Positions 3,537-45,654 of a DNA stretch of 64,000 nucleotides are shown here, piece by piece. Below the pieces are notes generated by a model. It searched no databases. It was not told the origin of the DNA and saw nothing but the letters and a program-made list of their open reading frames with translations. Position 1 is the stretch's first letter; each line of letters begins with the position of its first letter. Location of the stretch: assembly GCA_038998335.1 (NCBI GenBank), contig JAVZHQ010000001.1, positions 448,001-512,000 of the forward strand. Direction: 5' to 3'. The position numbers and the translations under genes are program-made. The stretch is from Candidatus Aenigmatarchaeota archaeon (GTDB taxonomy: Archaea > Aenigmatarchaeota > Aenigmatarchaeia > CG10238-14 > SCSR01).

Positions 3537-4667
3537 TTATTTTTCTTCTTCCTTAACTTCTTTCTCCTTCAAAACTTTTGCTAAATCGCGAATTAGTTTT
3601 CTTACATATTCCCTCATTTCATAAACTTCTTTATCAGGAATTTCAGTTATTTTCTTTTCGTCAGCAAGCTTTTTCATGTTTTCAATTTTCTGCCAAATGT
3701 CCCAGTAATAGTTTTCTATAAGCTTAGCATCGATAAATTCTTTCTTAAAAGTTAAAGGAATTTCTTCTTCCTTTTCAGGCATCTTCTTCAAAGTTTTTAA
3801 AGCAGTTATTGCTGCTTTGTGCATAACTTCATAAGTTCTTTCCAAGATTTTTTCTTTTTTCCTCAGCTCTAAAGCGTTAAGTAAGCCAAACATTTTTTCA
3901 ACAAATTTTTCTGCTTTATTTATCCATTCATCGACAAAAGCTCCGCTTACATCAGTAAGCTCTTTGTGCTCAATCTTCTTCCTTATTTCAATAATTTCTT
4001 TTAACCATTCAGCATACTCTGGCTCTAAAATTCCTGGCTCAACCAAAAATTTTTTCACTTCATCATAAGCTTTACTTGGAACAGGAGGAGCTAGTCCCAT
4101 AAACATCAAAACTGCTTGGGCAGTGTTGAGCATAGCATAATAACAATCTTCGGCAAGCATTAGTAGCTTAACAGTTTTTGCACGCATTATTTTTTTGGGA
4201 GCACCTTCCATGTAACTTTCTATAGCCTCTCTTGTTGCAGGTATTCTTCCCATTTCTAAAAGCTTTTTTATTGGAGCAAAGAAGCCAGTATCGTAAATTG
4301 GTATTCCTTCCTTTATGAAATTATAAATTATAGGGTGACAAACTCTTGCATAATCCCAGAATTCAGTTAAAGTATAACTTGGTTGAACAGAAATTCTTTC
4401 AGAAATCTTTTCTGCAATTTTTTCTAAATCTTCATCTATTTTTTCTTGTTCTTCAGGGGTTATTTGAAAAGAAGTATCGTCCAAAACAACAAAAACATCA
4501 ATATCACTTTTTGGTTTAAACTCTTCTCTTGCAACGCTTCCCATCATAACTATGCATTTTATGTATTTCCCGTATTTTTCCAAAACTTTTTGGGCAAAAT
4601 CTTTAACTTCTTTAAGCCTTTTCTCTTTTGTTTCTTCTTTTTCTTGATTTTTCTTTTTCGACATCAT
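3537..4667 (-). CDS. Nucleotidyltransferase (Pol beta/MNT) - HEPN fusion protein
   Basis: GSVAR...SDIDVFVVLDD NTase motif; HEPN helices CYYAMLNTAQAVL with R-x4-H (RKKIEH); extra helical C-terminal domain. Confidence 0.8.
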   Translation of the reverse strand: MMSKKKNQEKEETKEKRLKEVKDFAQKVLEKYGKYIKCIVMMGSVAREEFKPKSDIDVFVVLDDTSFQITPEEQEKIDEDLEKIAEKISERISVQPSYTLTEFWDYARVCHPIIYNFIKEGIPIYDTGFFAPIKKLLEMGRIPATREAIESYMEGAPKKIMRAKTVKLLMLAEDCYYAMLNTAQAVLMFMGLAPPVPSKAYDEVKKFLVEPGILEPEYAEWLKEIIEIRKKIEHKELTDVSGAFVDEWINKAEKFVEKMFGLLNALELRKKEKILERTYEVMHKAAITALKTLKKMPEKEEEIPLTFKKEFIDAKLIENYYWDIWQKIENMKKLADEKKITEIPDKEVYEMREYVRKLIRDLAKVLKEKEVKEEEK

Positions 4668-5518
4668 TCTTCCTCCTCTGGCAACTCCTCGCCAATTATT
4701 TCTTTTGGTAGTAAACTCTTAAACCTCTCGATTATTTCTTTTGTAAGTCTTAAGGCTTTTTCTAAATGTTCAGTAGTTACTTCTTTTATCACTTTATGGT
4801 CTACATCCTTCCAAAGCTTGTCTAATTCTTTAAATTTCTCTATGTATTCTTTTTCAAGTTTATTCTCTGCAACAAGCTTTTCCAAGTATTCAGGAATAGC
4901 TTTTTGGTCGGGCTGAGCCTTATAGTAATACATAATCACAGCTTGGCATATGTCTGTAGCAGAGTACCTTAACTCAAAAATCATTGACTTTATATCTAGC
5001 TTAATTTTTCTGAACCTTGCTTCGCTTGCTCTTGCTTTTAGACTAACTGTTTCCTCGCTAGGAGGAATCAAACCCATTTGAAGCATTCTTTGCACAGGCT
5101 TGATAAAACCTGTGTCATAAATTACTAAACCGTATCTTAAAAAGTTTACAAGCTCGGGAGAACCCATCTTAACCCAGTTCCAAAACTCTGTTAGAGGAGT
5201 AGTTTGAACATGTAATTCTTTGAGCTGATGGGCAATAAGATAAAGATGAGTTGTTACTTTTTCTAAATCTTCTGAACTTTTAGTAGCTGTATCGTCAAGA
5301 ATAACCCAAACATCTGCATCACTTCCTTTAACCATCGTACCTTTAGCTGCAGAACCAAAAATCAAAACTGACTTTATTAAATCGCCGTACTGCCTTCTTG
5401 CTTCGTTAGTAAAAGCAACAACTTTTGAATAAATTTCTTTTGGAGTTTTGATTTCCTCTTTTTCTTCCTTTTTCACAAGCTTTACTTCTTCTAACTCATC
5501 TTCCAGCTTTTCTATCAT
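4664..5518 (-). CDS. Nucleotidyltransferase - HEPN-like fusion protein, paralog of 3537-4667
   Basis: FGSAAK...SDADVWVILDD; shares YDTGF..P...L.MG.IP motif with its neighbour; HEPN motif degenerate (WKDVDH). Confidence 0.78.
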   Translation of the reverse strand: MIEKLEDELEEVKLVKKEEKEEIKTPKEIYSKVVAFTNEARRQYGDLIKSVLIFGSAAKGTMVKGSDADVWVILDDTATKSSEDLEKVTTHLYLIAHQLKELHVQTTPLTEFWNWVKMGSPELVNFLRYGLVIYDTGFIKPVQRMLQMGLIPPSEETVSLKARASEARFRKIKLDIKSMIFELRYSATDICQAVIMYYYKAQPDQKAIPEYLEKLVAENKLEKEYIEKFKELDKLWKDVDHKVIKEVTTEHLEKALRLTKEIIERFKSLLPKEIIGEELPEEEE

Positions 5519-5581
5519 TTTCTCACATTTAATAGTTATACAGGTTAAATATTACCTTTTGTATTTAAATAATAAAAGTAA

Positions 5582-7369
5582 CTATTTTAACTCTTCCTTC
5601 TTCCACTTTTCTGGTGTCATTCCAGGCTTTTGCAAAGCTGCACCACCTAGAAAAGTATATTCTTCTTCTGGAACAACTATTAATCCTTTTATTGGGTCGA
5701 AAGCATGCTCCCTTATGATAACTCTTTGTCTTTCAGGAGATGCAATTTCTTGAGTTGCAACTCCAAAAAACTCTGGTTTGTTTATAAGCTCTTCTGGAGG
5801 AGTATCTTTTTGCAAGAAGTCAGCCATAATTCTTATCGCAGTAACACTTCTTTTGAAAGGGTCATCACCACCTCCTCTTTCATATATTAGATAAACAGTG
5901 TGATGCTTTCCCAGGCCAGCTTTTCTTAAAGTCCAAAGAAGCTTGTAAACTTCTACATCTCCAGGCTCAACCTCAATATGATGGTGCAAAGGAGAAGGTT
6001 TTGTAACGTGTAAAGTTAAAATGTATTTACCAATATCTGGAACAAGTTTAATTAGCTCTGAATATTCGTAAAGCGGGTCAACGCCTTGAGTCGAAAGATG
6101 TTCGCTATCTATAATCATAAAAATCTTTTCTGCCCAATCTTTTGTTTTAGGGTCTTTTGCTAATTCTTCTCTTAAAACTTTAATCGCAACATAAATTTGC
6201 TTAGGATGCCATAAAGGATATAAACCAGCATAAGTAGGTGATCTAGCATCAGGGTTTTCTATAGCAATCTTAAATTCTTTAATTATTTTCTCAAAATTCT
6301 TTTTTTCTTCTTCTATTTTGCCAGGAGATAAAACTTTAATCTTTTCTTCTATTTCTTTTGGCAATTCGTTGATAATAAACTCGATTAACTTTTTTATATG
6401 CCCACAAAGATACTTTGCACTAACACAAGCGTAGTAAAACTCCTTGAACTTTCTTTCATCAGGACCAGAAGCCTTTTTTGCTATTTCAAACATCTCATCT
6501 ATATAATCTTTCCCTCTTTCTATATCATCTATAACAGGTGAAAAGGCTCTTGATTTGATTTCAGGAGGAAGCTTTTCTTCTAATCTTTTCAAAACATCTT
6601 CGTAAAGTTTTGCCATTTCTTTCCAAATAGGGTCTTGTGTATAGTAAAGATAGTGAAACATTATTTTGTAAATTACGTTCAAATTCCCCACTTCTTCTAT
6701 AAACCATTTTTTTCCTTCAGCCAAATGCTGCTCAACAGCTTCTCTAATTCTTTTTTCTCTAACTTTGCTTACTTCCTCTAGCTTAAACTTTCCTTCTCTA
6801 ACTTCTTCTTCTATCATCGCCAAGATTTGTCCTACTGTATGGGGCCCGATTATTGCGTCATCATACTCTAAAGGATGCCTGCTTATTCTGCAAAACCATT
6901 TTCTTAAGGGTTCACACTCTTTCAACTTAGGACGAGAAATATGTTCTCCCGATTCGTCAACCATTATAACAACCATCCTTGCTTCAGCATAAGTCAAAAG
7001 CTCAACCCAAGGATAAAGGCAAGAATGAAAATCTATATATTTACAACCACCAAAAATCGCTGAAATAGTTGATTTTCTTAAGTGGTCATCAGCTTCTCTC
7101 CAATGCTCAGCGTCGCCCATTTCAATAGGCACGGTTAAGCTACCGTGAAAAGTTAGCTCTAAATTTTGCTTTTCTGCTATGTAGCGCAACTCTTTTCCCA
7201 TAGAATAATCTATTTCATGTGGAACGTCGCCTGCAATTTCGATAACGTTTGCTCCTCTTGTTAAAGCATAGCCTAACTTTCTAATAGCATTCGCTAACTC
7301 AGGAGCCGCTGCTACTGCGTGTAAGCCAGTTGTTACCCCAACTTTAAACTGTTCTTCCAAAAAAATCAC
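5582..7369 (-). CDS. Xylose isomerase/AP endonuclease 2-like TIM-barrel metalloprotein with large helical insertion
   Basis: Ordered metal-ligand-like motifs LTFH, IDFH, IAIEN, IDSEH, LHV, HHH, IYERG; about 250 aa helical insert between IDFH and IAIEN. Confidence 0.65.
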   Translation of the reverse strand: MIFLEEQFKVGVTTGLHAVAAAPELANAIRKLGYALTRGANVIEIAGDVPHEIDYSMGKELRYIAEKQNLELTFHGSLTVPIEMGDAEHWREADDHLRKSTISAIFGGCKYIDFHSCLYPWVELLTYAEARMVVIMVDESGEHISRPKLKECEPLRKWFCRISRHPLEYDDAIIGPHTVGQILAMIEEEVREGKFKLEEVSKVREKRIREAVEQHLAEGKKWFIEEVGNLNVIYKIMFHYLYYTQDPIWKEMAKLYEDVLKRLEEKLPPEIKSRAFSPVIDDIERGKDYIDEMFEIAKKASGPDERKFKEFYYACVSAKYLCGHIKKLIEFIINELPKEIEEKIKVLSPGKIEEEKKNFEKIIKEFKIAIENPDARSPTYAGLYPLWHPKQIYVAIKVLREELAKDPKTKDWAEKIFMIIDSEHLSTQGVDPLYEYSELIKLVPDIGKYILTLHVTKPSPLHHHIEVEPGDVEVYKLLWTLRKAGLGKHHTVYLIYERGGGDDPFKRSVTAIRIMADFLQKDTPPEELINKPEFFGVATQEIASPERQRVIIREHAFDPIKGLIVVPEEEYTFLGGAALQKPGMTPEKWKKEELK

Positions 7370-9120
7370 CAGTAAACTTCAAAACCTGGAACTTCAAACT
7401 TTGTTTTGAGAAAGTTTGCAACTAAACCAAAATGTCTTCCTGTAATTGTTTGATAAAATTTTGTTAGTCTGTCATTAGGAATAAACTCATAAGGTCCATA
7501 AGCTCTGAAAAAAGCCATTTCAAAACCTAAGCTTCTAAAGAGATTGCTAATACCTTCCTTAATCTTGTTAAATTGCTCGATAAACTTTTTTCTTTGGAGA
7601 TAAGCTTTATCGCTTGCCGAAATAAAAACTTTTGGCTTTTCTTTTTTCTCTTTTTCTCCGTAGATTTCAGGAAACTCTTCTTCCAGCAATTCTTTTATTG
7701 GTTTACCTTCTACAGCCTCGCCTAGCATTTGACTTATATAATTTTCAAGTTGTTTGTCTCTTGCTATTATTTCAAGACAATGACATATTATCAAATTTTG
7801 GGTTTGGGTGTAAGCTTTTAGTGTATCTACCATAATATTTTCAATTTCAGGTCCTGCTGGTGGTATTCTTACAACAGTTCTTGAAATTGGTATATCAAGG
7901 AAAACATAGTAAGGAGAAAAAACCCAGGCTTCTGTCATGCCTAAACCTTTTGTAGATTTTTCAAATTGATCTATAAGCATCTCTCTTGCTTTCAGAAGGT
8001 CTAAAGGATTGAACTTAACGTTATACTCTTTCTCTATTTCTGGGATCATTTTCCTTACTACACTATCTATCGAAGGCTCAACTGGTAAAGCCTTAACATA
8101 ACCGTCAAAATCTTCACCTTTTTTCTCATATATGAATGTTATTTCCTCTTCTGTGAAACCTGCTTTAGCCAAAGAAATCTTGTCAAAACTTTCTCTTACA
8201 ACTTTATACTTTTCTTCAACAGCAAAAGGTTTCCAAGCATATATTCTCATAAAATCTATCGATAAGGCTTGAGCGTCTGGTCTAAAAAATAGTTTAATCA
8301 TTCCTCTTCCTTCAGGACTTGAAAGCGCATCATTTATCATCTTATACCTTGCTATACTTGGCTTAAGCATTTCTTTGTATTCTTCAACAGATTTTCTTCT
8401 TGCCTCAACCAATTGCCTCAAACTTTTATACCTATTCTTAACAGTTTCGCCAAAAAGTCTGTCTCGCCATTCTAAGTAAAGTTTGTTTTTTGTAGCTAGC
8501 ACAACGCCTTCTGCTTCTGAAACGTTAAGCTTTTTTGCTATTTTTTCTGGCTCTGTATCTTCATCGCTTAACTTCATAAAATCTGCTATAATAGTTGGCC
8601 ATCTTATGGCAATTTCTCTTAAAGCAATTCCTGGGCCTGTATGAGCATCTACCAAATCTATAAAAACTGCTTTTAGAGATTGATCACCTTCTTTTACCAA
8701 CTTTTCCCCTTCTTCTTTTTTTCCTTCTTTAATCAGTTTTTTTCCTTTTTCTATTTTTGTATAGTAATCCAAAAACTCTTTGTATTTTCTTAAGTCGTGC
8801 ATTACTAATTCTAAATCAGAGATTGCAGTTGCTACGCTAGCTAAACCAGCTTTTATCGTAGCCTCTAAAGCCTCTTTTTGTCTTAAAGTTAACTCGTAGT
8901 ATTCTCTAAATACAGGAGAAACAAAAATAGATTCTTCTACTTTATACCTTACGAAACCCCATTTTGGTAGCTGGAACATTAAAGAATAGTAGACTCCTGT
9001 GCATCTTCCCAAAGGTGTAGTAAAATCTAGAAGCTCTTCTGCTTCAAAAGGCTTAGCGTTGATTCCTTGCCCTGGTGGAATTTCTGCCGGAGGAAACGGA
9101 CCTTCTGGATATTTTATCAT
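7366..9120 (-). CDS. Hypothetical coiled-coil protein (584 aa)
   Basis: Long ORF with host-like codon usage; GTGA overlap with the downstream gene; heptad-rich N-terminal half. Confidence 0.8.
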   Translation of the reverse strand: MIKYPEGPFPPAEIPPGQGINAKPFEAEELLDFTTPLGRCTGVYYSLMFQLPKWGFVRYKVEESIFVSPVFREYYELTLRQKEALEATIKAGLASVATAISDLELVMHDLRKYKEFLDYYTKIEKGKKLIKEGKKEEGEKLVKEGDQSLKAVFIDLVDAHTGPGIALREIAIRWPTIIADFMKLSDEDTEPEKIAKKLNVSEAEGVVLATKNKLYLEWRDRLFGETVKNRYKSLRQLVEARRKSVEEYKEMLKPSIARYKMINDALSSPEGRGMIKLFFRPDAQALSIDFMRIYAWKPFAVEEKYKVVRESFDKISLAKAGFTEEEITFIYEKKGEDFDGYVKALPVEPSIDSVVRKMIPEIEKEYNVKFNPLDLLKAREMLIDQFEKSTKGLGMTEAWVFSPYYVFLDIPISRTVVRIPPAGPEIENIMVDTLKAYTQTQNLIICHCLEIIARDKQLENYISQMLGEAVEGKPIKELLEEEFPEIYGEKEKKEKPKVFISASDKAYLQRKKFIEQFNKIKEGISNLFRSLGFEMAFFRAYGPYEFIPNDRLTKFYQTITGRHFGLVANFLKTKFEVPGFEVYW

Positions 9121-9145
9121 AATTTAATTTTATGTTTTTTTTCGC

Positions 9146-9304
9146 TTAAACTTTCATTAAAATTAGCCCGATTACCATTAGCAGAATCCCTATAAAAATT
9201 CCTGCCTTTGTCATTTCTTCAGGTTGATATTTTTCTATGTAAGGAAAAGAGATAATAATTAATAAGCCAAAAACAAAACAACCTGCGCCTATTATCTGAT
9301 TCAT
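9146..9304 (-). CDS. 52-aa two-TM membrane microprotein (below ORF-track cutoff)
   Basis: Hand translation MNQIIGAGCFVFGLLIIISFPYIEKYQPEEMTKAGIFIGILLMVIGLILMKV; ATG 9304, TAA 9146-9148. Confidence 0.75.
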   Translation of the reverse strand: MNQIIGAGCFVFGLLIIISFPYIEKYQPEEMTKAGIFIGILLMVIGLILMKV

Positions 9305-9308
9305 ACCA

Positions 9309-9455
9309 TCACTTCAATAATTCTAAACCTATATAAATTAAGCTTGGGCCAAATAAAATTTCTGCTAAGAAAATTTCTTTGCTTGAAGTTCCAAACGCAC
9401 CTAAAAAAAATAAAATTCCGAACAAAAGAAAAATTCCACCAATTATTTTTTCCAT
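9309..9455 (-). CDS. 48-aa two-TM membrane microprotein (below ORF-track cutoff)
   Basis: Hand translation MEKIIGGIFLLFGILFFLGAFGTSSKEIFLAEILFGPSLIYIGLELLK; similar to the adjacent microprotein. Confidence 0.7.
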   Translation of the reverse strand: MEKIIGGIFLLFGILFFLGAFGTSSKEIFLAEILFGPSLIYIGLELLK

Positions 9456-9521
9456 AAATTAAATTTAGAGAAAAGATTAAAATCTTTTTAGTTAGAAGCA
9501 CAAATAATATAAAGTGATAAG

Positions 9522-10076
9522 ATGCCTATATTTGCAAGAACTAAGCTTGTTATACATGACGATTGTTTGTCACCAGCTCCTGGAAGCCCTTATCCAGGAA
9601 TGGCCTATACAAAGCTAGAGTACAAAGGACCTAATCCTCAAAAACTTTATCACAAGATAAAAGAACTTTTTATAAGCATTTGGAAAATTGACCCGCATGA
9701 ACTGCAAGAAAGGGATGTTTCTTGGGACAGGAGCAAGGGGGAAGAAAGGTTTAAAGTTACTTTTGATATGGTAAAAGATTTGGACGTTTTCTCTTTCATT
9801 CAAGTGATAGTTGAGCTTAGCGGCTCAGCAAAACCCAGCAAAGAGTTTGGAAGTGAGGGTTCGGCAACAATAAGAATAGAGGGAAGGCTAAGAACAGAAT
9901 ACCCTCAAGATACTCTATGGCAGAGAAGCTTGCTTTATGAGATGTTTAGAGTTTTTTACCATAGAGTAATCTACGAAGGAACAAGGAAGAAATATTTTGA
10001 ACAATGCAGGACAGATTTGATGAAGTTTATCGAGGAAATAAAATCTTTCCTTAATATTCTTAGCAAGTCAAGCTAG
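9522..10076 (+). CDS. Hypothetical protein, paralog of 10084-10608
   Basis: Shared motifs I.DDCL.P, EY.G..P.K.Y, ERD..WD, GRLRTEY. Confidence 0.8.
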   Translation: MPIFARTKLVIHDDCLSPAPGSPYPGMAYTKLEYKGPNPQKLYHKIKELFISIWKIDPHELQERDVSWDRSKGEERFKVTFDMVKDLDVFSFIQVIVELSGSAKPSKEFGSEGSATIRIEGRLRTEYPQDTLWQRSLLYEMFRVFYHRVIYEGTRKKYFEQCRTDLMKFIEEIKSFLNILSKSS

Positions 10077-10083
10077 TGGTTGA

Positions 10084-10608
10084 ATGGTATCCCTAACTTG
10101 GAGGATTGAAGATGATTGCTTAGCACCACAAGCTAGAATAAGTGTTGAGTATGCTGGGAAAGACCCTTTTAAAGCTTATAAAATTGTGAGGGATACTTTA
10201 AGAAAGGTTTTGGAAGTTGAATCAAAAGATTTGTGGGAAAGAGACTTTAGGTGGGATATAAGCTCTGACCCTAGAGGGTTTTTTGTTAGAGTTTATGTGG
10301 ATAAAGGAATAGACGCTAGGTCAAAAGCTTTGATTGAAGTTATAATGCAGGGTGAAATACCTTCTGATCCAAACAAGGAAGGAAGAATAACAATCCAAAT
10401 TGGTGGAAGATTAAGGACAGAATATAAACTTGAAACAGGATTTCAACAGCTTCCAATCTATAGAGGATTGCTTTGGCTTTATCATAAACTTTTTTATAAT
10501 AGAGTAAGAAGAGGGTATCTCGGAATATGTTATGACTGGATTCAAAAGCTTAACTCTGCTTTTAGAGAAGTTCTTGAAATTTCTGAAGAAGCTTTGGGAA
10601 AAACTTAA
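10084..10608 (+). CDS. Hypothetical protein, paralog of 9522-10076
   Basis: Same motifs as the upstream paralog; 7 bp after its stop. Confidence 0.8.
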   Translation: MVSLTWRIEDDCLAPQARISVEYAGKDPFKAYKIVRDTLRKVLEVESKDLWERDFRWDISSDPRGFFVRVYVDKGIDARSKALIEVIMQGEIPSDPNKEGRITIQIGGRLRTEYKLETGFQQLPIYRGLLWLYHKLFYNRVRRGYLGICYDWIQKLNSAFREVLEISEEALGKT

Positions 10609-10639
10609 TTATTTTAACAGAAAAAACCAAAAAAATAGT

Positions 10640-10912
10640 ATGGGGATCTTTTCTTTTTTGAGGAGAAAGAAAGAACCAAGTATACCAACTGAACTCCCTG
10701 AGTTACCTCCTTTACCTCCCTCGCCTTCATTACCAAAACCAGAAGCAAGTGTTGAATCCTCTTCCATAGAAAATTTAAGAGTAAAGATTGACTTGGTTTT
10801 AACACATATAGATAGCTTAAAAACGCAGTACGAAACTTTAAACGAGAGAATAAAAAATATAGAGCAAATGGTTCAAGAGATTAGAAGCTATTATTATGTT
10901 TATAAGAAGTAA
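10640..10912 (+). CDS. Small protein: amphipathic N-terminus, Pro-rich linker, C-terminal coiled coil
   Basis: MGIFSFLRRKK-(PELPPLPPSPSLP)-LRVKIDLVLTHIDSLKTQYETLNERIKNIE; ATG at 10640 preferred over the overlapping upstream start. Confidence 0.72.
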   Translation: MGIFSFLRRKKEPSIPTELPELPPLPPSPSLPKPEASVESSSIENLRVKIDLVLTHIDSLKTQYETLNERIKNIEQMVQEIRSYYYVYKK

Positions 10913-12643: not shown

Positions 12644-13567
12644 TTGGTAGCTCAAAAAAATTTAAAGATTAGTCTTTATAAACTTCCTGACAGCAACTAC
12701 ATTCATAAAACTTTTAAGGAAGTTTGCAGAAAATTAGAGATTAAACCTTCTCAAGAAGATTTGGAAAGGCTAGTGGTTTATGACATGACTGATGGGATGA
12801 GAACAACTACTAAGCTTATAGGAGCTGATTCTTATTTTGACGGTGCAATTTTTGTGCTCAAGCTTGGACATATTTTAAAAGAATTAGGAAGTAAATGCTT
12901 GTACACTAATGTTGCAGAAGAGAAACATGCTCAAAGAAAAAATTGGCCTGACATTCTAGCTGCTCTAAAGCGTTGTCCAAGAATTTATGAGAATTATGCC
13001 ATGGAAAATGATGTTAGACTAATATTCTTGGGAGATTATCGTAAAATGGACCCTTCAGGAGATTTGGGAAGAGAAATAGATATGCTAATGGAAAAAACTG
13101 CTAATAACAAAAGTTTTACTTCTGTCTATCTCTTAGGCTATTCTCCTGAATGGGCAGAATTAAATCGAGAATTATGGGAAGGTTTGCCTGAAATAACAGT
13201 AACAATAAGACACGCGAAGCTAAGGTTTTCTACAGGAATGCAACTTCCTCCTGAAAAGTCAGAAAATACTGAATTTGTTTATGTTCAGCAAGGCTCAGCA
13301 GATTCTACTTGGAAAGATTATCAAAAGATTTGCTTAGCTGGAATTGCTTTAAGGAGCATGCTGATAAACGAGTTGGGAACGCAATATTGGAAGGAATACA
13401 CAAGAAAAGAGGCAGAAATGATAAGAAGGTTAAGAGAGGAAGAGTTGTATTATAGACGCTTTTATCTTTTTGAACCTCATCCTTATTGTGGGTTTACAAA
13501 GTATCCTCCTTTAACTAAAAGAGCTATAATAGGAAGTCCTTTTGGTCCTGAAGAGATTCTTTTTTAA
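12644..13567 (+). CDS. Divergent cis-prenyltransferase-fold enzyme (UppS/Rv3378c-like)
   Basis: DGMRT in place of DGNRR/DGTRR; VRLIFLGDYRK; TANNK...LLGYS; RFSTG. Confidence 0.65.
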   Translation: MVAQKNLKISLYKLPDSNYIHKTFKEVCRKLEIKPSQEDLERLVVYDMTDGMRTTTKLIGADSYFDGAIFVLKLGHILKELGSKCLYTNVAEEKHAQRKNWPDILAALKRCPRIYENYAMENDVRLIFLGDYRKMDPSGDLGREIDMLMEKTANNKSFTSVYLLGYSPEWAELNRELWEGLPEITVTIRHAKLRFSTGMQLPPEKSENTEFVYVQQGSADSTWKDYQKICLAGIALRSMLINELGTQYWKEYTRKEAEMIRRLREEELYYRRFYLFEPHPYCGFTKYPPLTKRAIIGSPFGPEEILF

Positions 13568-14619
13568 ATTAAACCAAACCTTTTGAAGAAATTAGCTTTT
13601 TCTTTCTTTGCTTGAGTTTCAATCATTAAAGCCAAGCCCTGATGAGTTCTTGGGTCAAACTTAAGTTTTTTTATTTCTTTCAAAGCTTTTTCCATTTTTT
13701 GCTTGTAAGGCTCATCCATCTTATCAAGAATTTTTGGGTCTTCTTTTATAAGCCTTCTTACTAGTTCTTTGTTTATTTCTTTAGCGTCTTTGAACTTACA
13801 AATTGCAGTTGTTATTATCGGGTTTGTTTCCAAATTTTCTATATCCTTTTCAATTTTCTGAACGTCGTTTACCCATAATTGTAAACGAGTTCCTCCAACA
13901 GTAAAAAATTCACTTTCTAATTCTTCTAAAACTTTGTTTTTTCCTCCGCTTTCTAAATAAGCTATACGAGCTGCGCATCCTCCCATCAATCCTAACTTCT
14001 CAACAAGAAGCTCCATACAAGCTTGATAACTTGGATACTTTTCTCTTAATCTTTCGAAATCGCCTCGAAGGTAGCACAAATGATCCTCTATATCTTTTTG
14101 TTGACCTTCCATAACTTTTTCTTTTTCTGAAAGATAGATTTGGAAAGAAGAAGGATTTAGCTTTCCAAATCTTTCGTTCACAAGGTTATCTAAATTGTTA
14201 ACTATATTCTTGTAAATTTCATGTTTATGAAGTTTTTCTTGTAAAGTTTTTTCGTCAAGTTTTTTGAAAGCAAGAACTCTTGGGTCATATTCATCATTAT
14301 CTGTATCCATTATATCGCCAAGACCAAAAGCAAGCCTTATTGTTGTCACAACCTCTAAAACATGAGGATTTTTTATAGCTTGCTTAAAGCCAAGATTTGC
14401 GCCACATATGGTTAAAGCTTCTACAGTTCCTGCAGCATAAAGCCTTGTTTGGTAGTTTAAAACTTCATGAATTTCTTCCTCTCTTGTTGGTGAATCTACA
14501 TCAAGATAATAGTTGAGAATGGCTTTTTCCATCCTAGGTTTAATTACTTGGGTATCTAGTTGCATATAAGTAAACAATCTTTTGTAGAGCTGTTTTCCTA
14601 ACCATTCTTTAAATTTCAT
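13564..14619 (-). CDS. Divergent class I isoprenoid synthase (polyprenyl synthase/terpene synthase fold)
   Basis: Asp-rich DIMDTDND, GQQKD, EKLG, LQLWVNDVQKIEKDIE in the order expected for FARM, GQxxD, KT, SARM. Confidence 0.6.
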   Translation of the reverse strand: MKFKEWLGKQLYKRLFTYMQLDTQVIKPRMEKAILNYYLDVDSPTREEEIHEVLNYQTRLYAAGTVEALTICGANLGFKQAIKNPHVLEVVTTIRLAFGLGDIMDTDNDEYDPRVLAFKKLDEKTLQEKLHKHEIYKNIVNNLDNLVNERFGKLNPSSFQIYLSEKEKVMEGQQKDIEDHLCYLRGDFERLREKYPSYQACMELLVEKLGLMGGCAARIAYLESGGKNKVLEELESEFFTVGGTRLQLWVNDVQKIEKDIENLETNPIITTAICKFKDAKEINKELVRRLIKEDPKILDKMDEPYKQKMEKALKEIKKLKFDPRTHQGLALMIETQAKKEKANFFKRFGLI

Positions 14620-15850: not shown

Positions 15851-17629
15851 TTAAACTTTCCAGTATTCACCTTTTTCCTTTTGTTCTAAATCAAGTTGAG
15901 AGTTAAGCTTGTTAGCTCTGGGTCTTCCTGTTTGAGGGTCTTTCCTGAAAGTTATTCCAACGTTTTTTAAAAAAAGGTTAAAAGCTTCTTTAATTCTTTT
16001 AACTTCCTCTACATAACCTTTTATTCCTGGTTCTCCCAAAAAAACCATTGCCCTACTTCCTACTTGACTTAGGAAAAGTAAATCATGGTCTATAACTATA
16101 CAACTTTTTTCTTTTAAATCAACTAGCTTGTTCAAAAGTTTGGCAAGGCTAAGCCTTTGCTCTACATCCAAGAAAGCAGAAGGTTCGTCTAAAAGGTAAA
16201 GGTCAGAATCCTTGGAAAGGCAATAAGCTATAGAAACTCTTTGAAGCTCGCCTCCTGAAAGCTCTTTTATCTTTCTTTCCAAAAGCTTTTCCAGAGCTAA
16301 AGGTTTAGCTATTTCTATTTTGTATTCATCTTTTTCAACATCTGCTACAGAGCTTAAGTATTCCTTGACTGTGCCTTCAAAATTTATTTCAATGTACTGT
16401 GGCTTGTAGGAAATTTTAACCGAAGAGCTAAGTTTTCCTTTATCAGGCTTTAATTCTCCTGCTAGAATTCTTGCAAAAGTTGTTTTTCCTAAGGCATTAG
16501 CTCCGAGAATTGCTAAAACTTCTTTTTTTCTTAAATCGCCTTTTTCTATTTCAAGAGAAAAGCCATTAAGCTTCTTTGAAATGTTTTCAAAAGAAACTAA
16601 AATTTCCTGTGAAATTCCTCTTTCAGAAATGCTTGAGAAAAAGGTTATTGGCTCTTCCCTAAACCTTACGTTATCTTCTTTTATGTAGCCATCAAGAAAA
16701 ACGTTTATTCCTACTCTTGTGCTATAAGGCTTAGAAACTATTCCATAAGCTCCTGGATAACCGTAAAAAATGTGAACTCTATCAGCTAAAAAGTCTAAAG
16801 TTGCTAAGTCATGGTCTACTATTAAAACTGATTTCTCGCTTGAATATTCTTTTATAATTTTTGCCATGCTTAGCCTTTGAAAAACGTCAAGAAAGCTTGT
16901 TGGCTCATCGAAATAAAAAATGTCTGCATCTTTCAAAAGACAAGCAATTATCGCAACCCTTTGAAGCTCGCCCCCTGAAAGCTCGTTAATCTCTTTTTCT
17001 ACTATACTTTCGAGGTTTGTTTTTTTGAGAAGTTCGTTTAAAATTTTTCTTTCGTCTATTTTTTCCAAGAGTTTTGAAACCTTTCCTTTGTAAAATTTTG
17101 GTATTTGGTCAACTCTTTGAGGTTTGTAAGAAACCCTTATTTTCCCTTCTTTCATTTCCTCAAGGTAAGCCTGAAGTTCTGTTCCACGAAAAATTTTAAT
17201 CAAACTTGAAAAATCTGCCTCGCTACCAAAATTCCCAAGGTTTGGCTTTATTTCTCCTGCTAGAATTCTTAGCGCAGTAGTTTTTCCTGTACCGTTTGGC
17301 CCAACTAAACCAACAATCTTACCTTTTACAGGAAAAGGCAACCTAAAAAGTGCAAACTCATTAGGGCCAAACCTGTGAATTGGTGCTTCCTCAAGCTCTT
17401 TTGGTAAGTTAACTATGCTTAAGGCTTTAAAGCCTGCTCTTTCACAAGCTTTAACGCATAAAGCACAGCCAATACAAATGTTTTCGTCTATTCTTGGAAA
17501 GTTAGTTTCTTCTTCAACTACTATACATTCTTCTCCACTTCTATTCTTTGGACAAACTTTTATGCATTGATAATTACATTTTTCTGGCTTGCATAGCTCC
17601 TTATCTACTACTGCTATCCTTTTTGCCAT
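15851..17629 (-). CDS. rli: ABCE1/RLI ribosome recycling ATPase
   Basis: N-terminal twin Fe-S Cys motifs; two ABC domains (GPNGTGKTT, GANALGKTT, LSGGELQR); RPRANK tail. Confidence 0.96.
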   Translation of the reverse strand: MAKRIAVVDKELCKPEKCNYQCIKVCPKNRSGEECIVVEEETNFPRIDENICIGCALCVKACERAGFKALSIVNLPKELEEAPIHRFGPNEFALFRLPFPVKGKIVGLVGPNGTGKTTALRILAGEIKPNLGNFGSEADFSSLIKIFRGTELQAYLEEMKEGKIRVSYKPQRVDQIPKFYKGKVSKLLEKIDERKILNELLKKTNLESIVEKEINELSGGELQRVAIIACLLKDADIFYFDEPTSFLDVFQRLSMAKIIKEYSSEKSVLIVDHDLATLDFLADRVHIFYGYPGAYGIVSKPYSTRVGINVFLDGYIKEDNVRFREEPITFFSSISERGISQEILVSFENISKKLNGFSLEIEKGDLRKKEVLAILGANALGKTTFARILAGELKPDKGKLSSSVKISYKPQYIEINFEGTVKEYLSSVADVEKDEYKIEIAKPLALEKLLERKIKELSGGELQRVSIAYCLSKDSDLYLLDEPSAFLDVEQRLSLAKLLNKLVDLKEKSCIVIDHDLLFLSQVGSRAMVFLGEPGIKGYVEEVKRIKEAFNLFLKNVGITFRKDPQTGRPRANKLNSQLDLEQKEKGEYWKV

Positions 17630-17633
17630 AACA

Positions 17634-18476
17634 TTAAGATTGTTTAGAAGAGATAAGTTTTTTTCTTGTAAGGAAAAGGAAGTAATAGGTTTTTGCTGTT
17701 GTTAGGAAAACATAAGAATAAGAAAGGAAAAAGGAAAGAACAGCTAAAGCTACTGTTATTCTTTCGGGATTGTTTGTTATTAAACCGATAATTTGAATTA
17801 AACCAGCCTGCGAAAGCTCGCCATAAGTTGAGAAGATTTGATAAACAAAAACTATTTGAGAGAAAAGAGGTGAAAGTGAAAGAATTACAAGGAAAAATGA
17901 AGAAAAAAGGATGGAAAAATAGATTAGATAGAGAAAAAGCCAAAATAGAAAAGATGTCAAAAGATTTTTAATAACTAGCGAATAACTTCTTTTCATAGCT
18001 TCAAGGAAGTCCTCTCTGTTTATAACTATTGATGGCAAGGAAAGAAGGAAAACAAAGCTTACAAGAAATCTTAGGAGCAAACCAAAACTTCCAAAAAAAT
18101 ATAGAAAAAGGTTGATAAAAGTTAGAAAAAAGAATAAACCCAAGATTTGAGGTAAAAGTTTTTTTGAGAATTTTAATCCAGCGTTTAAACCTTCTTTTCT
18201 CCAGACATCATAAACCAAAGCTCCTGAAAGCCAGCAGTTGAAAACAAAAACGATAAAAGAAATTGCCACAAGGATTGAAGAGTTTATAAGAATTAGATTA
18301 AGGTTTTCTTGAGTTAACTTTAAAATTAAAAAGTTTGGTAAAATGCTTATTAGTGGCAAAAGAAAGAAAAGAGAAATGAAAGAAGAAATGAAGTAGAGCG
18401 TAAAAAAAGGAAAAATTCTTTTAAACTTGAGAGAATCTGCTAAACTTTTTTTATAGATTTCAAGTGTCTTCATCAA
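17634..18476 (-). CDS. Polytopic membrane protein of unknown function
   Basis: About 6 hydrophobic helices. Confidence 0.75.
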   Translation of the reverse strand: MMKTLEIYKKSLADSLKFKRIFPFFTLYFISSFISLFFLLPLISILPNFLILKLTQENLNLILINSSILVAISFIVFVFNCWLSGALVYDVWRKEGLNAGLKFSKKLLPQILGLFFFLTFINLFLYFFGSFGLLLRFLVSFVFLLSLPSIVINREDFLEAMKRSYSLVIKNLLTSFLFWLFLYLIYFSILFSSFFLVILSLSPLFSQIVFVYQIFSTYGELSQAGLIQIIGLITNNPERITVALAVLSFFLSYSYVFLTTAKTYYFLFLTRKKLISSKQS

Positions 18477-18521: not shown

Positions 18522-19682
18522 ATGCAGATTGGTTTAGTTGGCAAGCCATCTAGCGGAAAATCAACCTTTTTTAAAGCAGCAACTTTGATAGATGTGAAAA
18601 TAACAGGAATACCCTTTTGCACTATAAAGCCTAATGTTGGAATAGGATATGTTATTATTGATTGCGTTTGTAAAGAGTTTGGTGTTAAGTGTAAGCCTAA
18701 AGCTGGTTTTTGCAAGAATGGGAAAAGGTTTGTTCCTGTTAAGCTAATAGACGTTGCAGGCTTAGTTCCAGGGGCTCATGAAGGTAGAGGCCTAGGAAAT
18801 CAATTCTTAGACGACTTAAGGCAGGCTTCGGTTTTGATTCATATAGTTGATTTTTCTGGTTTAAGAGATGAAGAAGGAAGGCCAACTTCTGGCTATGATC
18901 CTTCTCGCGACATAGAATTTTTGGAAGAGGAAATTGACTTATGGTTTGCAAGTGTTATAGAAAAAGCAATTAAAAAGTTTGAAAGAAGTTTAATAGGAAA
19001 GACAAAAGCAGATTTGATTGAAATCTTAACTCAGCAGCTTAGCGGTTTGGAAATTTCAAGAGAGCATGTTGAAAAAGCCTTGGAAAAAGCTTCGCTAGCT
19101 GACATAAAAAATTTTGCTAGAATTTTAAGACAAATTTCTAAACCAATTTTAATAGCTGCAAACAAGATAGATTTGAAAGAAGCGAAAGAAAATTTTGAAA
19201 GGTTGAAAGAGAAATATCCTAATGTAATTCCAACAAGCGCAGAGGCAGAAGTTGCTTTAAAGAAAGCTGCAGAAAAAAACTTGATAGATTACTTACCTGG
19301 GAATGGCTTTGAAATTGTTGATAGAAGTAAGCTTGATGAGAAACAGATAAAAGTTTTGGAGATGATAAAAAAAGAGATAGTAGAAAAGTATGGTTCCACT
19401 GGAGTGCAAACTTGCTTAAACAAAGCTGTTTTTGAGTTGTTGAATTACATAGCAGTTTATCCTGTTGCTGACAGCAAAAAGCTAAGTGATAATGAAGGTA
19501 ATGTCTTGCCGGATGTTTTTCTTGTTCCAAAAGGAATAACTCTTAAAGAGTTTGCTTTCAAAATCCATACAGAAATTGGGGAAAAGTTTATTTGTGGTAT
19601 AGACGCAAGAACAAAGAAAAAGCTTTCTGCTGATTATCAGCTTAAGGATAAGGATGTTGTAGAAATTGCCTTTGCTAAGTAG
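18522..19682 (+). CDS. ychF: YchF/Obg-family ATPase/GTPase with TGS domain
   Basis: GKPSSGKST, PFCTIKPN, DVAGLVPGAHEGRGLGNQFL, ANKID, C-terminal TGS. Confidence 0.93.
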   Translation: MQIGLVGKPSSGKSTFFKAATLIDVKITGIPFCTIKPNVGIGYVIIDCVCKEFGVKCKPKAGFCKNGKRFVPVKLIDVAGLVPGAHEGRGLGNQFLDDLRQASVLIHIVDFSGLRDEEGRPTSGYDPSRDIEFLEEEIDLWFASVIEKAIKKFERSLIGKTKADLIEILTQQLSGLEISREHVEKALEKASLADIKNFARILRQISKPILIAANKIDLKEAKENFERLKEKYPNVIPTSAEAEVALKKAAEKNLIDYLPGNGFEIVDRSKLDEKQIKVLEMIKKEIVEKYGSTGVQTCLNKAVFELLNYIAVYPVADSKKLSDNEGNVLPDVFLVPKGITLKEFAFKIHTEIGEKFICGIDARTKKKLSADYQLKDKDVVEIAFAK

Positions 19683-39042: not shown

Positions 39043-39210
39043 CTATCTTTCCTCTAAATAGATTACAGCATCTTTATGAATGTACTTAATTTTTCCTTTA
39101 GTTTCCAGAGCTATCCATTTATCAACCTCTTTCAAAATTCCTTCTAGAGGAATTGTTGTGTCGCCCATTGCTATTATTATCCTAACTTTTTTGCCAACTA
39201 GCTCTTTCAT
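39043..39210 (-). CDS. 55-aa Sm/LSm-like microprotein (below ORF-track cutoff)
   Basis: MKELVGKKVRIIIAMGDTTIPLEGILKEVDKWIALETKGKIKYIHKDAVIYLEER; ATGA overlap with the lhr stop; ends 1 nt before the MPE start. Confidence 0.75.
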   Translation of the reverse strand: MKELVGKKVRIIIAMGDTTIPLEGILKEVDKWIALETKGKIKYIHKDAVIYLEER

Positions 39211-44919: not shown

Positions 44920-45654
44920 ATGATCAATTTTCCTTTTAATCCAATAAAAAGAGCGGAAGAAGTTGAAAAAGTTGTAATGAAAGATTTGGAAAGGAAGTAC
45001 TATCGTTTTAGGTATGCTAGCTATTATGGAGGAATAGCAACTGCTGACACTATAGGATGCTGCTTTCTTTGCGCTTATTGCTGGAATTACTTTAAAAATT
45101 TAAAGCCAGAAAGATTCGGAGAATTTTATTCTCCAGAAGAAGTTAGCAAGAAAATTTTGGAAATAGTTGAGAAAAAAAGCTTGGATAGAGTTAGAATTAG
45201 TGGAGCAGAACCAATTTTGGGAGAAAAATCTTTTGACCATTTAGAAAAAGTGATTCAAGAAATTTATGAAAGAAAATCTAGCTTAGATTTTATTCTTGAA
45301 ACTAATGGCCTAATTCTTGGCTTGAACAAAAAATTTTGTTCAAGGCTAGCTAAATATCCTTTAGCTGTAAGAATTTCTGTTAAAGGTTGGGATGAAAAAA
45401 GTTTTGAGAGAATTTCTGGTGCAGAAGGAAAATTCTTTATTTATCAACTAAAGGCAATAAAAAACTTGCAGGATTTTGGTTTAGAAGCATGGCCTGCTGT
45501 CATGTATGAAATTTTTGGAAGAAAAGAGATTGAAATTTTGGAAGAAAAATTAAGAGAAATTGGAGTAGAAAGTAGAATAGAAGTTGAGTACTTAGAAAAA
45601 TATCCTTTTGTTGTCGAAAATTTAGAGAAAAGGGGGATAATTCTCAAAAGTTGA
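44920..45654 (+). CDS. Radical SAM protein
   Basis: YGGIATAD..GCCFLCAYCW, RISGAEP, ILETNG. Confidence 0.88.
   Translation: MINFPFNPIKRAEEVEKVVMKDLERKYYRFRYASYYGGIATADTIGCCFLCAYCWNYFKNLKPERFGEFYSPEEVSKKILEIVEKKSLDRVRISGAEPILGEKSFDHLEKVIQEIYERKSSLDFILETNGLILGLNKKFCSRLAKYPLAVRISVKGWDEKSFERISGAEGKFFIYQLKAIKNLQDFGLEAWPAVMYEIFGRKEIEILEEKLREIGVESRIEVEYLEKYPFVVENLEKRGIILKS

Follow-up and report, generated by a model that had tools for sequence, protein, structure and literature searches.

We describe here a gene cluster that is inherited across the whole phylum Aenigmatarchaeota, a group of tiny DPANN archaea, and most of whose proteins fit no known family. The cluster was analysed in a window of 64,000 nucleotides, corresponding to positions 448,001–512,000 of the forward strand of contig JAVZHQ010000001.1 from Candidatus Aenigmatarchaeota archaeon (GCA_038998335.1). 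Its conserved core consists of a putative TIM-barrel protein (C) paired with a predicted stalk-and-tip protein (D), a microprotein with two transmembrane (TM) segments (e), and a divergently encoded pair of paralogues (G and H). Dozens of diverged genomes show this arrangement, which is more than chance would give, and the cluster is very probably a real conserved functional unit. Regarding its role, we favour a phylum-specific, vertically inherited housekeeping cluster that would encode a membrane-tethered machine with a metallo-phosphoesterase at its centre, a reading to which we assign a probability of roughly one in three.

All nine open reading frames that a first-pass annotation had listed were found at their coordinates, six on the minus strand and three on the plus strand, in an ordinary chromosomal setting. 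The two 4-bp stop/start overlaps it had reported were located at the D/C junction (GTGA, 7366–7369) and at the B/A junction (ATGA, 4664–4667); unlike these, B and C are separated by a gap of 63 nt. Between the two arms lies a divergent intergenic region of 66 bp (9456..9521), AT-rich as read from the sequence, in which the promoters for both arms presumably sit. GC3 and codon usage of the cluster were the same as in the remainder of the window, and its neighbours included neither an integrase nor a transposase, in line with the host-like codon style and absence of mobility genes described earlier.

The cluster was compared with 80 related loci from species-representative genomes, the gene-order counts being restricted to loci with enough flank. 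The loci are labelled Aenigmat(arch)aeota (43), ‘uncultured archaeon’ (32), ‘archaeon’ (2), Nanoarchaeota (2), and Micrarchaeota (1), which bears out the DPANN affinity that had been suggested. C was present in 79/80 loci, with D directly upstream in 56 of the 61 that had enough flank. Microprotein e or f was present in 52/61 loci with room, and the G+H pair in 47/57. Gene order was conserved even in genomes whose C is only ~40% identical to that of the window, so that co-inheritance, the point on which the first-pass annotation had let its proposal stand or fall, was upheld. Other neighbours in the window (M29 peptidase, Lrp, and others) recurred in just 0–4 of the 80 loci. C is immediately followed by H in four loci and immediately preceded by G and H in four; these rearrangements tie both arms to C. 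The nine genes do not, however, form a uniform module as had been proposed. The core is conserved, whereas f was found in only 7 loci and I in 11 (9/50 with room), both being lineage-specific, and the genes for NTase-HEPN proteins (A and B) were found downstream of C in 37/66 loci.

Every major clade of the C tree includes loci with these NTase-HEPN genes. They were missing within 10 kb downstream of C in 29/66 loci, and were co-directional with C and directly adjacent to it (≤300 nt) in 25/66. In a tree built from 74 C proteins, loci with an adjacent NTase gene fell on either side of the midpoint root, and adjacency changed state at least nine times. Alternatively, the genes might be neighbours by descent, with C-D-e-G-H as one unit and the NTase-HEPN pair as an independent, DPANN-wide housekeeping gene that stays adjacent just as ABCE1 does. 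The similar frequency of adjacency for NTase and ABCE1 (37/66 and 23/44 loci) is consistent with this, as are the 63-nt B–C gap where other junctions overlap, and the occurrence of MNT-HEPN proteins DPANN-wide in varied housekeeping contexts, according to PMC6393860, as against the restricted distribution of D and G/H. On the other hand, the NTase genes run co-directionally close to C and none of the deep clades of the C tree lacks them, while ABCE1 is convergent to H and not co-directional. We regard this explanation as doubtful, though a serious one.

C (5582..7369, minus strand, 595 aa), the probable metallo-phosphoesterase, had been taken for a metal TIM barrel. When aligned relatives of C were searched, 20/27 matched the xylose-isomerase-like family PF01261 (AP_endonuc_2; E ≤ 0.01, best E 3.5e-10), but C of the window itself had no match to PF01261. 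In the six relatives examined, the match spanned only the N-terminal ~85 residues in every case (profile ~3–90 of 249), with scores of 26.6–36.5 bits against a cut-off of 31.1. The remainder of the barrel would lie beyond this N-terminal third.

Nine residues are invariant in the C family: H75, H115, E371, D421, H424, H454, H462, H464, and E497. They match, in order and approximate spacing, the nine metal ligands of E. coli endonuclease IV, Nfo (H69, H109, E145, D179, H182, H216, D229, H231, and E261); the residue identities at these positions were confirmed in the Nfo sequence. Seven of the nine correspondences were placed by an alignment program (hhalign or hmmsearch), with H75/H115 falling on H69/H109 and D421/H424/H454 on D179/H182/H216 in profile alignments. 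The other two, E371 with E145 and E497 with E261, come from local motif reading alone, outside the program's alignment. In a shuffle test, real Nfo ranked 80th and 27th of 3001 (itself and 3000 shuffles). Beyond the N-terminal third, the similarity of C to endonuclease IV was not statistically significant: against Nfo, the hhalign probability was 0.3% with the full profile and 1.0% and 0.3% with the two trimmed halves, and it was 6% against a bona fide local PF01261 family. A search of PDB sequences with the C profile returned no match. A helical insert of ~240 aa lies between H115 and E371. The conserved residues seem to point to phosphoester hydrolysis; the signalling, protein-modification, and division roles offered in the first-pass annotation are guesswork. 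That C is a metal-dependent phosphoesterase appears to us an even bet.

Several relatives of C are named ‘sugar phosphate isomerase/epimerase’ by JGI, and many members of PF01261 are sugar isomerases or epimerases. The cluster might then be a metabolic operon around such an enzyme, perhaps with a TrmB-type sugar regulator. A TrmB-family gene does lie directly after C, in convergent orientation, in 18 loci, and the closest solved sequence relatives of the NTase are sugar-modifying kanamycin nucleotidyltransferases. However, isomerases carry a four-ligand E-D-H-E set, whereas C keeps nine invariant His/Asp/Glu residues. Moreover, the window has no TrmB, no conserved sugar kinase, transporter, or other pathway gene was found near the cluster, and the partners of C, namely D, the microprotein, and G/H, are non-metabolic in character. 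A sugar-metabolic role is accordingly held to be improbable.

The 584-aa protein D (7366..9120, minus strand) had been described as a coiled-coil protein, and its AF2 model (pLDDT 79.7, pTM 0.74) indeed contains two antiparallel helices of 60 residues each. In the model these form a stalk between an alpha/beta base and a helical tip domain. The most conserved motif of the protein is in the tip (D155, D158, R173-W174-P175, and D180-F181). No relatives of D were found in Pfam, NCBIfam, PADLOC, PDB, or BFVD, and its family has 274 representatives in a set of 1.84 billion proteins. Weak Foldseek matches of D include the coiled coils of SMC, Rad50-type, and dynein-stalk proteins, all with TM below 0.2 and over coiled-coil segments only. 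D was also considered as an SMC/Rad50-type coiled-coil ATPase, and this was rejected, as no ATPase family of Pfam or NCBIfam was matched and the structural matches were of such low TM.

With C as an endonuclease IV-like AP endonuclease and D as a Rad50/SMC-like partner, the cluster could be read as a DNA-repair module. The resemblance of the C ligand pattern to that of Nfo, the base–stalk–tip architecture of D together with its weak matches, and the DNA ligase that neighbours the cluster in 13 loci would suit such a module. The missing ATPase family and the restriction of the matches to coiled coil speak against it, and a membrane microprotein would be unexpected there. We consider DNA repair highly improbable.

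Microproteins e (9146..9304, minus strand, 52 aa) and f (9309..9455, minus strand, 48 aa) have two hydrophobic segments each, as had been claimed, and none was found in the other seven proteins of the cluster. Members of the e family occur in 53 loci, and the microprotein gene nearly always sits immediately upstream of D; e is a candidate for a conserved membrane anchor. The membrane link postulated in the first-pass annotation is supported by this conserved 2-TM microprotein. The module had further been described as built from paralogue pairs. This is correct for A and B (32% identity, E 8e-36) and for G and H (32% identity, E 1e-23), but e and f are similar at E 0.02 only, and hence their paralogy is not demonstrable.

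G (9522..10076, plus strand, 184 aa) and H (10084..10608, plus strand, 174 aa) constitute an unnamed alpha+beta family. Neither matched a Pfam family, and among the 120 matches listed, every one with a source name was from Aenigmatarchaeota. G is the better conserved paralogue, with 14 invariant columns, many of them charged or aromatic (including R6, K8, E63, D88, E126, Y127, Q129, R135, R143, and H147), whereas the degenerate H has only five; each protein has two nearly invariant Cys residues. The AF2 model of G (pLDDT 87.8) shows a six-stranded sheet and a C-terminal helix of 45 residues. Its best Foldseek matches were Cyt1Aa, SRPBCC/Bet v 1, and Ups1, all weak (E 8e-5 to 1e-3); the superpositions gave TM 0.14–0.28 and rmsd 7–17 Å, and with TM below 0.3 the fold assignment is weak. 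It may be noted that, with a membrane anchor in the cluster and G/H resembling START/Cyt proteins, a substrate from lipids or the envelope is no less fitting than RNA.

The last gene of the plus arm, I, had been listed as 10532–10912. Its homologues begin with MGIF or MGL and an ATG is present at 10640; since the homologues start likewise, I most likely starts at 10640 (10640..10912, plus strand, 90 aa, MGIFSFL...). The Pro-rich coiled-coil protein that had been reported is present with this probable new start; an N-terminal MGIFSFLRRKK segment is followed in it by a linker rich in Pro and by a coiled coil at the C-terminus. In 13 other loci, the position of I is held by a 3–4-TM protein of 107–234 aa (median 119).

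Membrane-lipid or envelope phosphodiester remodelling or scavenging would offer another role for the cluster. Here C would cleave or remodel head groups or envelope phosphodiesters, G/H would bind the hydrophobic substrate, D would span from the membrane site anchored by e, and the NTase-HEPN genes would be only neighbours. The 2-TM microprotein in 52/61 loci, the presence next to H of other small proteins of membrane or amphipathic type (I in 11 loci, the 3–4-TM protein in 13), the phosphoesterase-like ligand pattern of C, and the lipid-binding or lipid-inserting nature of the best G matches (Cyt1Aa, SRPBCC/START, Ups1; E ~1e-4) are consistent with this. Yet the TM values for G are below 0.3, hydrophobic segments are missing from C, D, G, and H, no lipid enzyme family of Pfam or NCBIfam was matched, and the neighbouring genes belong to information processing rather than to lipids or the envelope. 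Such a role is, in our view, unlikely.

A (3537..4667, minus strand, 376 aa) and its short paralogue B (4664..5518, minus strand, 284 aa) had been annotated as two NTase-HEPN fusions. PF01909 was matched by A (E 8.6e-10, 39.3 bits) and B (E 3.2e-7, 31.1 bits) above the cut-off of 21, and by 38/38 NTase family members; G43, S44, D55, and D57 of the G-S...D-x-D motif are invariant, and B keeps intact NTase motifs. By profile and motif together, both are firmly predicted to be nucleotidyltransferases of the Pol-beta superfamily. The HEPN half of the description came out weaker. PF05168 matched B below its cut-off of 22 (E 1.1e-3, 19.5 bits), was not detected on A itself, and was found at E ≤ 0.01 in 13/38 family members (best 5.4e-6). 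The long type carries R-K-x-[IV]-E-H (Rx4H) in 37/37 sequences, and in the short type W-K-D-x-D-H replaces it in 20/20, with loss of the HEPN Arg. Beyond its HEPN-like helical domain, A has a helical C-terminal extension of ~110 aa. Close relatives of A carry the source name ‘nucleotidyltransferase/UPF0332’. Kanamycin NTase was the best PDB sequence match of A, over the N-terminal domain only (E 1.7e-7); that enzyme is not known to have Rx4H, whereas the long-type A has it.

When the cluster was searched against PADLOC-DB 2.0, as had been proposed for excluding known systems, PDC-S09 matched A (E 7.9e-14) and B (E 1.8e-10), and there were weaker PDC-M05A and CBASS-cyclase matches; all of these are confined to the generic NTase fold. 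Nothing there matched C, D, e, f, G, or H, and I had one weak match to LmuB (E 0.004). PHROGs gave nothing meaningful for the cluster. A known anti-phage system was rejected, because no full set of system proteins was matched and only A/B match NTase-type models. A HepT/MntA type VII toxin–antitoxin was likewise rejected: the domains are fused in one ORF, the distribution is phylum-wide in a housekeeping context, and the NCBIfam MntA antitoxin model gave 25.7 bits (E 7.7e-6) against a cut-off of 60. A defence or toxin–antitoxin island resting on a HEPN RNase and an MNT (HepT/MntA-like or PDC-S09/PDC-M05-like) with accessory effectors would draw on these PDC-S09, PDC-M05A, CBASS-cyclase, and MntA matches and on the Rx4H of the long form. 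But the matches cover a generic fold far under the NCBIfam cut-offs, toxin and antitoxin domains are fused, 7/9 proteins have no PADLOC match below E 0.004, and the conservation, native composition, and surroundings free of mobile genes are those of a phylum-wide housekeeping locus. A defence role therefore seems to us extremely improbable.

The genes neighbouring the relatives include ABCE1, an Obg-like GTPase, DNA ligase, Pus10, aIF5A, and ribosomal proteins. The median identity of A to its relatives was 46%, as against 50% for ABCE1. Conservation near the level of ABCE1, information-processing neighbours, and native codon usage support a housekeeping character. As a separate observation, NTase-HEPN adjacency is no commoner than that of ABCE1, and ABCE1 is surely no subunit.

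For the favoured membrane-tethered housekeeping machine, the following arrangement may be envisaged. It builds on the gene content, conserved gene order, domain assignments, and conserved motifs shown above, whereas the assembly of the proteins into one complex, phosphoester hydrolysis by C, and RNA as the substrate are inferred. C would be the catalyst, an endonuclease IV-like TIM barrel that probably binds three metals and contains a large helical insert. D, whose gene appears translationally coupled to that of C, could act as a scaffold or a substrate-positioning arm by virtue of its stalk and tip, and e, apparently duplicated here as f, would anchor the assembly at the membrane. G/H would pair one conserved ‘working’ subunit with one degenerate subunit and bind substrate or cofactor. 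The NTase-HEPN pair would be an ancient, frequently retained partner, of which A is, by motif, putatively complete for catalysis in both domains while the HEPN site of B appears degenerate.

The process that we put forward for this machine is an RNA-end pathway, although we think it rather unlikely. HEPN cleavage would leave a 2′,3′-cyclic or 3′-phosphate RNA end, C would heal the 3′ end in the manner of endonuclease IV acting on DNA, and nucleotides would be added by the NTase. The boldest form, a lineage-defining, membrane-anchored RNA end-processing machine without counterpart elsewhere, in which a heterodimeric A/B cuts and tails, an endonuclease IV-derived tri-metal C heals, D serves as scaffold, the 52-aa microprotein is the tether, and a G/H heterodimer selects the substrate, is distinctly unlikely. 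If true, the MNT-HEPN ‘dark matter’ gene found across DPANN archaea would receive its first function, and three protein folds or families would be new.

Compared with known systems, C appears to share with Nfo the ID-x-x-H and H...[D/H]-x-H motifs. Nfo is a compact single-domain barrel of ~285 aa, whereas C is twice as long and not compact, has the conserved insert, carries a His (H462) at one Asp ligand position, and is always paired with D; its C-terminal two thirds have no homology to Nfo/PF01261 detectable by HMM or profile–profile methods. Like the SRPBCC/START/Bet v 1 helix-grip proteins and Cyt1Aa, G is modelled with an antiparallel sheet packed by a long C-terminal helix. Unlike them, G/H always occur as a paralogue pair, and they have no sequence relationship to those proteins, the superpositions staying at TM 0.14–0.28.

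Like HepT/MntA and the kanamycin nucleotidyltransferase ANT(4′), A and B combine an NTase of Pol-beta type, carrying GS...DxD, with a putative helical domain of HEPN type, and the long form A has Rx4H as HepT does. In contrast to HepT/MntA, A and B carry both domains in one chain, their distribution is neither patchy nor mobile, and their NCBIfam scores are far under the family cut-offs. PMC6393860 (Makarova, Wolf and Koonin 2019) describes a DPANN-specific cluster, cls.004259 (NEQ050), as ‘MNT fused to HEPN, typically in house-keeping context’ and a top-priority unknown. This cluster and A/B share the domain fusion, the superphylum, and the housekeeping context, and are alike in a conservation unusual for a toxin–antitoxin-like architecture. 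By architecture and context, A/B probably belong to this DPANN-wide family. A/B are tied to the C-D cluster, of which section 5 and Table 1 of PMC6393860 make no mention, and, unlike cls.004259, the protein is duplicated here, within one clade, one copy (A) being complete and the other (B) degenerate in HEPN.

All nine ORFs that the first-pass annotation had assigned to a module between 3537 and 10912 were recovered where it had placed them. The minus strand carries two NTase-HEPN proteins, the long A (3537–4667, 376 aa) and the short B (4664–5518, 284 aa), together with the candidate metal TIM barrel C (5582–7369, 595 aa), the stalk-and-tip protein D (7366–9120, 584 aa) and the microproteins e (9146–9304, 52 aa) and f (9309–9455, 48 aa). 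On the plus strand lie the paralogous alpha+beta proteins G (9522–10076, 184 aa) and H (10084–10608, 174 aa), and the Pro-rich coiled-coil protein I. The last is present, but its start as originally listed (10532–10912) is probably wrong; homologues begin as the MGIFSFL form does, and the ORF most likely starts at ATG 10640 and encodes 90 aa. Both proposed 4-bp overlaps were observed, GTGA joining the D stop to the C start and ATGA joining the B stop to the A start. The microproteins e and f carry two hydrophobic segments each, as claimed, and no such segment was found in the remaining seven cluster proteins. As for paralogy, A/B (32% identity, E 8e-36) and G/H (32%, E 1e-23) are genuine pairs, but e/f gave only a short match (E 0.02). 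A host-like codon style had been noted, and in GC, GC3 and codon usage the nine genes indeed fell within the range of other window genes; likewise, the window is without integrase or transposase. Its remainder is ordinary archaeal chromosome (GatD/GatE, glutamine synthetase, ABCE1, GTPases, helicases, P-type ATPase, and others). No tRNA genes were found in the 64 kb, and no Rfam family reached its gathering score. A sigma-70 promoter scan of the window gave the shuffle level, the model not being applicable to archaea.

When GTDB representatives were scanned, with one genome per species, C relatives were encoded by 116 genomes, and the best 80 of these were taken for locus comparison. These loci were labelled Aenigmat(arch)aeota (43), 'uncultured archaeon' (32), 'archaeon' (2), Nanoarchaeota (2) and Micrarchaeota (1). 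Among the matches listed, the closest C relatives were 85–92% identical and came from Aenigmatarchaeota MAGs; the others among the 120 listed were 37–52% identical. The ORFs of the 80 loci were searched with iterated HMMs seeded by each window protein and ten flanking proteins. C matched in 79 of the 80 loci, D in 69, e in 53, G/H in 52 (102 matches, or two per locus), A/B in 42, ABCE1 in 28, I in 11 and f in 7. The M29 peptidase, aEF1A-like GTPase, Lrp, Fe-ADH and other flanking genes matched in 0–4 loci, mostly the two nearest relatives. Separate all-against-all clustering of the locus ORFs left the ranking of families unchanged, and no additional family appeared in more than 18 loci.

Adjacency was counted only at loci with sufficient sequence on the relevant side. 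D stood immediately upstream of C on the same strand in 56 of 61 loci (58/61 at any position), e or f was present in 52/61, and the G+H pair in 47/57. The homology and synteny search that the first-pass annotation had suggested thus shows the core genes co-inherited in relatives. An NTase-HEPN gene lay downstream of C in 37/66 loci, was co-directional and within 300 nt of C in 25/66, and occurred twice in 15/66; I was present in 9/50. The proposed nine-gene unit therefore stands for a core of C, D, e, G and H, but not for I, f or the NTase-HEPN genes at their lower counts. With C set to the plus strand, the commonest order was [ABCE1+] H- G- e+ D+ C+ (B+) A+. At four loci (L012, L037, L046 and L080) G and H stand immediately before C and co-directional with it, D or e being shifted to the divergent position at the first three; at four others (L022, L025, L028 and L056) H immediately follows C. 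Therefore, both arms track C.

A FastTree phylogeny was built for 74 C proteins, excluding six C ORFs below 480 aa and lacking L060, where no C ORF matched. NTase adjacency (36 of the 64 rows that could be scored) and G/H presence (47 of 57) are both spread over the two sides of the midpoint root, with at least nine and six state changes, respectively. Hence the arrangement is old, with repeated loss or relocation. A single-clade accident is ruled out by the same distribution. One of the main rival explanations is that the NTase-HEPN pair is merely an old neighbour. For the core itself, we put the probability that C, D, e, G and H truly form one functional unit of Aenigmatarchaeota, conserved since ancient times, at about 90%.

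In relatives, the genes conserved next to the cluster have housekeeping roles: ABCE1, Obg-like GTPase, DNA ligase, Pus10, TatD and DUF655, and further aIF5A, L21e, L35Ae, Rpb4 and diphthamide synthase. ABCE1 was found upstream in 23 of the 44 loci with room for it, on the strand opposite H and facing the H 3' end (e.g., L010:3485–5263); its distance from H ranges from direct abutment to ~1.7 kb. A PADLOC check for known systems, as had been suggested, gave matches that did not go beyond the NTase fold in A and B, and a PHROGs scan of the cluster returned nothing meaningful. A defence or toxin–antitoxin island, another main rival, is opposed by the housekeeping neighbours, the host-like composition and vertical inheritance across the phylum; taken with the PADLOC and PHROGs results, these speak against both a defence island and a mobile element.

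In the window, ABCE1/RLI (Fe-S plus twin ABC ATPase) lies at 15851–17629 (-), ~5 kb off and on the same strand as C. A TrmB-family regulator, convergent immediately after C in 18 loci (including L010:11830–12624), does not occur in the window; in the examples checked, such loci had no downstream NTase-HEPN gene. A LigT-type 2',5' RNA ligase/cyclic phosphodiesterase (45644–46177, -) and an Lhr-type helicase (39207–41924, -), both RNA/DNA end-processing genes, are unlinked to the cluster. The 971-aa protein at 31493–34408 (+) carries N6_Mtase, Eco57I and MmeI-type methyltransferase domains and is therefore a type IIG/IIL-like restriction-modification enzyme; its gene falls within the lowest-GC part of the window (0.30–0.31). 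Four ORFs matched no Pfam family at E<=1e-5: 12644–13567 (307 aa), 13564–14619 (351 aa), 17634–18476 (280 aa) and 19675–21297 (540 aa), the first two recurring in the closest relative (L005) only. Putative large surface or secreted proteins, of a kind typical of DPANN cell-surface repertoires, are encoded at 11–952 (CARDB/ASH), 26085–28469 (MG2/Big/CarboxypepD_reg, 794 aa) and 50941–53400 (DUF2341, 819 aa). The DUF123 ORF 56859–57254 (-) overlaps by 177 bp a 299-aa ORF without a Pfam family (57078–57977, +), and one of the two may have a wrong start or be a wrong ORF.

C had been called a metal TIM barrel. PF01261 (xylose-isomerase-like TIM barrel) matched 20 of 27 aligned C relatives (best E 3.5e-10), but Pfam gave no significant match on window C, and in six inspected relatives the match spanned just the first ~85 residues (profile 3–90 of 249) with scores near the gathering cut-off. 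When set against a genuine PF01261 family taken from these loci, the C profile aligned over the N-terminal part only (hhalign probability 6%, not significant). A sugar isomerase operon is a main rival here. In the C family alignment 66 columns are invariant, with His, Asp and Glu abundant. In E. coli endonuclease IV (Nfo), nine positions that we take to be metal ligands hold H, H, E, D, H, H, D, H and E. When hhalign and hmmsearch were run separately on the two halves of C against Nfo, the programs placed H75/H115 of C on H69/H109, D421/H424 on D179/H182, H454 on H216, and H462/H464 on D229/H231; E371 (I-E-N) and E497 (L-I-x-E) look like the motifs at Nfo E145 and E261 and were left unaligned. 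Among 3000 shuffles, real Nfo ranked 80th (N half of C) and 27th (C half) of 3001, which is suggestive and not conclusive of a likeness; hhalign of C against E. coli Nfo was not significant (probabilities 0.3–1%). From these alignments, we predict C to be a metallo-phosphoesterase with an endonuclease IV-like barrel and a conserved helical insert of ~240 aa, and give even odds to its being a metal-dependent phosphoesterase. A DNA-repair module is a further main rival.

Profiles of C, D and G/H found nothing below E 0.03 among PDB sequences. For D, no relatives were found in Pfam, NCBIfam, PADLOC or PHROGs, and among 1.84 billion representatives a profile search gave only 274 relatives at E<=0.001. 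In the AF2 model of D (59-sequence alignment, pLDDT 79.7, pTM 0.74), a small beta-alpha-beta unit is accompanied by two helices of 60 residues (72–131 and 202–261) flanking a helical sub-domain (135–198), and by an alpha/beta region from residue 285 on. The helical sub-domain also holds the best conserved motif (D155, D158, R173-W174-P175, D180-F181). Foldseek against PDB and BFVD returned generic coiled coils only (TM <0.2), and an ESM Atlas search no usable match. Some family members (P0240–P0264 and P0238–P0258 listing) are ~390–430 aa and comprise the base-stalk-tip (N) part only, others are ~240–270 aa with the C-terminal part only; in some lineages the gene may therefore be split or the contig truncated.

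For G, AF2 predicts (pLDDT 87.8) a six-stranded sheet together with a single short helix and a C-terminal helix of 45 residues. In Foldseek, Cyt1Aa and SRPBCC/START/Bet v 1 proteins were weak matches (TM 0.14–0.28, E no lower than 8e-5). G has 14 invariant columns, many charged or aromatic, and the degenerate H has five. Near-invariant cysteines occur in both (C15 and C162 of G, C12 and C149 of H), and a G/H heterodimer could unite the four in a metal or Fe-S site. A G/H profile search returned 335 proteins; the 120 matches listed had no Pfam domain, and those named by source were all 'hypothetical protein'. An ESM Atlas search with G found unnamed archaeal clusters only. A predicted D+G+H complex scored the same when an unrelated protein stood in for G, so that the score carries no weight on binding either way. 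D, G and H have a basic pI, as is the background in these genomes, and it is hence uninformative on nucleic-acid binding. Beyond H, 13 loci encode a 3–4-TM protein of 107–234 aa (median 119; e.g., L060:6677–7036). In the window's clade I takes the same relative position, a median of ~3.5 kb upstream of C, and the two may be functional replacements. The cluster components are predicted soluble, the microprotein excepted. A role in membrane-lipid or envelope phosphodiester chemistry, also a main rival, is favoured by the microprotein and the look of G/H.

The nucleotidyltransferase domain claimed for A and B is certain by family match. Pfam detected the HEPN domain in 13 of 38 A/B family members, and in a 57-sequence alignment the Rx4H motif, as R-K-x-[IV]-E-H, was present in 37/37 long-type proteins, whereas 20/20 short-type proteins had W-K-D-x-D-H in its place; loci with a single NTase gene hold the long type. 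At loci with C below 60% identity, median identity to the window was 50% for ABCE1, 46% for A, 40.5% for G, 39.5% for C, 35.5% for B, 32% for D and 30.5% for H. The conservation of A is comparable to that of ABCE1, and its best 120 database clusters were all at least 77% identical. We propose, with low confidence, that C acts with the NTase-HEPN proteins in the cutting, healing and tailing of RNA ends. Of the first-pass interpretation, then, the conserved core stands, while the functional claims stay conjectural.

DPANN archaea are a large, mostly uncultured share of archaeal diversity, and their lineage-specific genes are mostly without function. The cluster, conserved at housekeeping level in 116 species-representative genomes, ties the MNT-HEPN fusion (MNT being its nucleotidyltransferase half) to concrete candidate partners and a testable chemistry, metal-dependent phosphoester hydrolysis. 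Its function would reveal how Aenigmatarchaeota differ from other archaea. The labels of the close relatives point to hot-spring and hydrothermal assemblies; as, moreover, all but the microprotein are predicted soluble, biochemical and cryo-EM study is realistic.

The cluster corresponds to no described system. We found no published account of a C-D-e-G-H cluster, and the supplements or FTP tables of Makarova, Wolf and Koonin (PMC6393860) may list corresponding clusters. D, G, H and e, four of the six core families, match nothing known. The same paper, the one in the literature consulted to treat the MNT-HEPN fusion, names it a top-priority DPANN unknown and describes a DPANN-specific cluster, cls.004259 (NEQ050), in 36 of 67 DPANN genomes; A and B agree with this account and are candidate members. 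The His/Asp/Glu pattern of C is suggestive of Nfo, from which C differs in carrying the helical insert.
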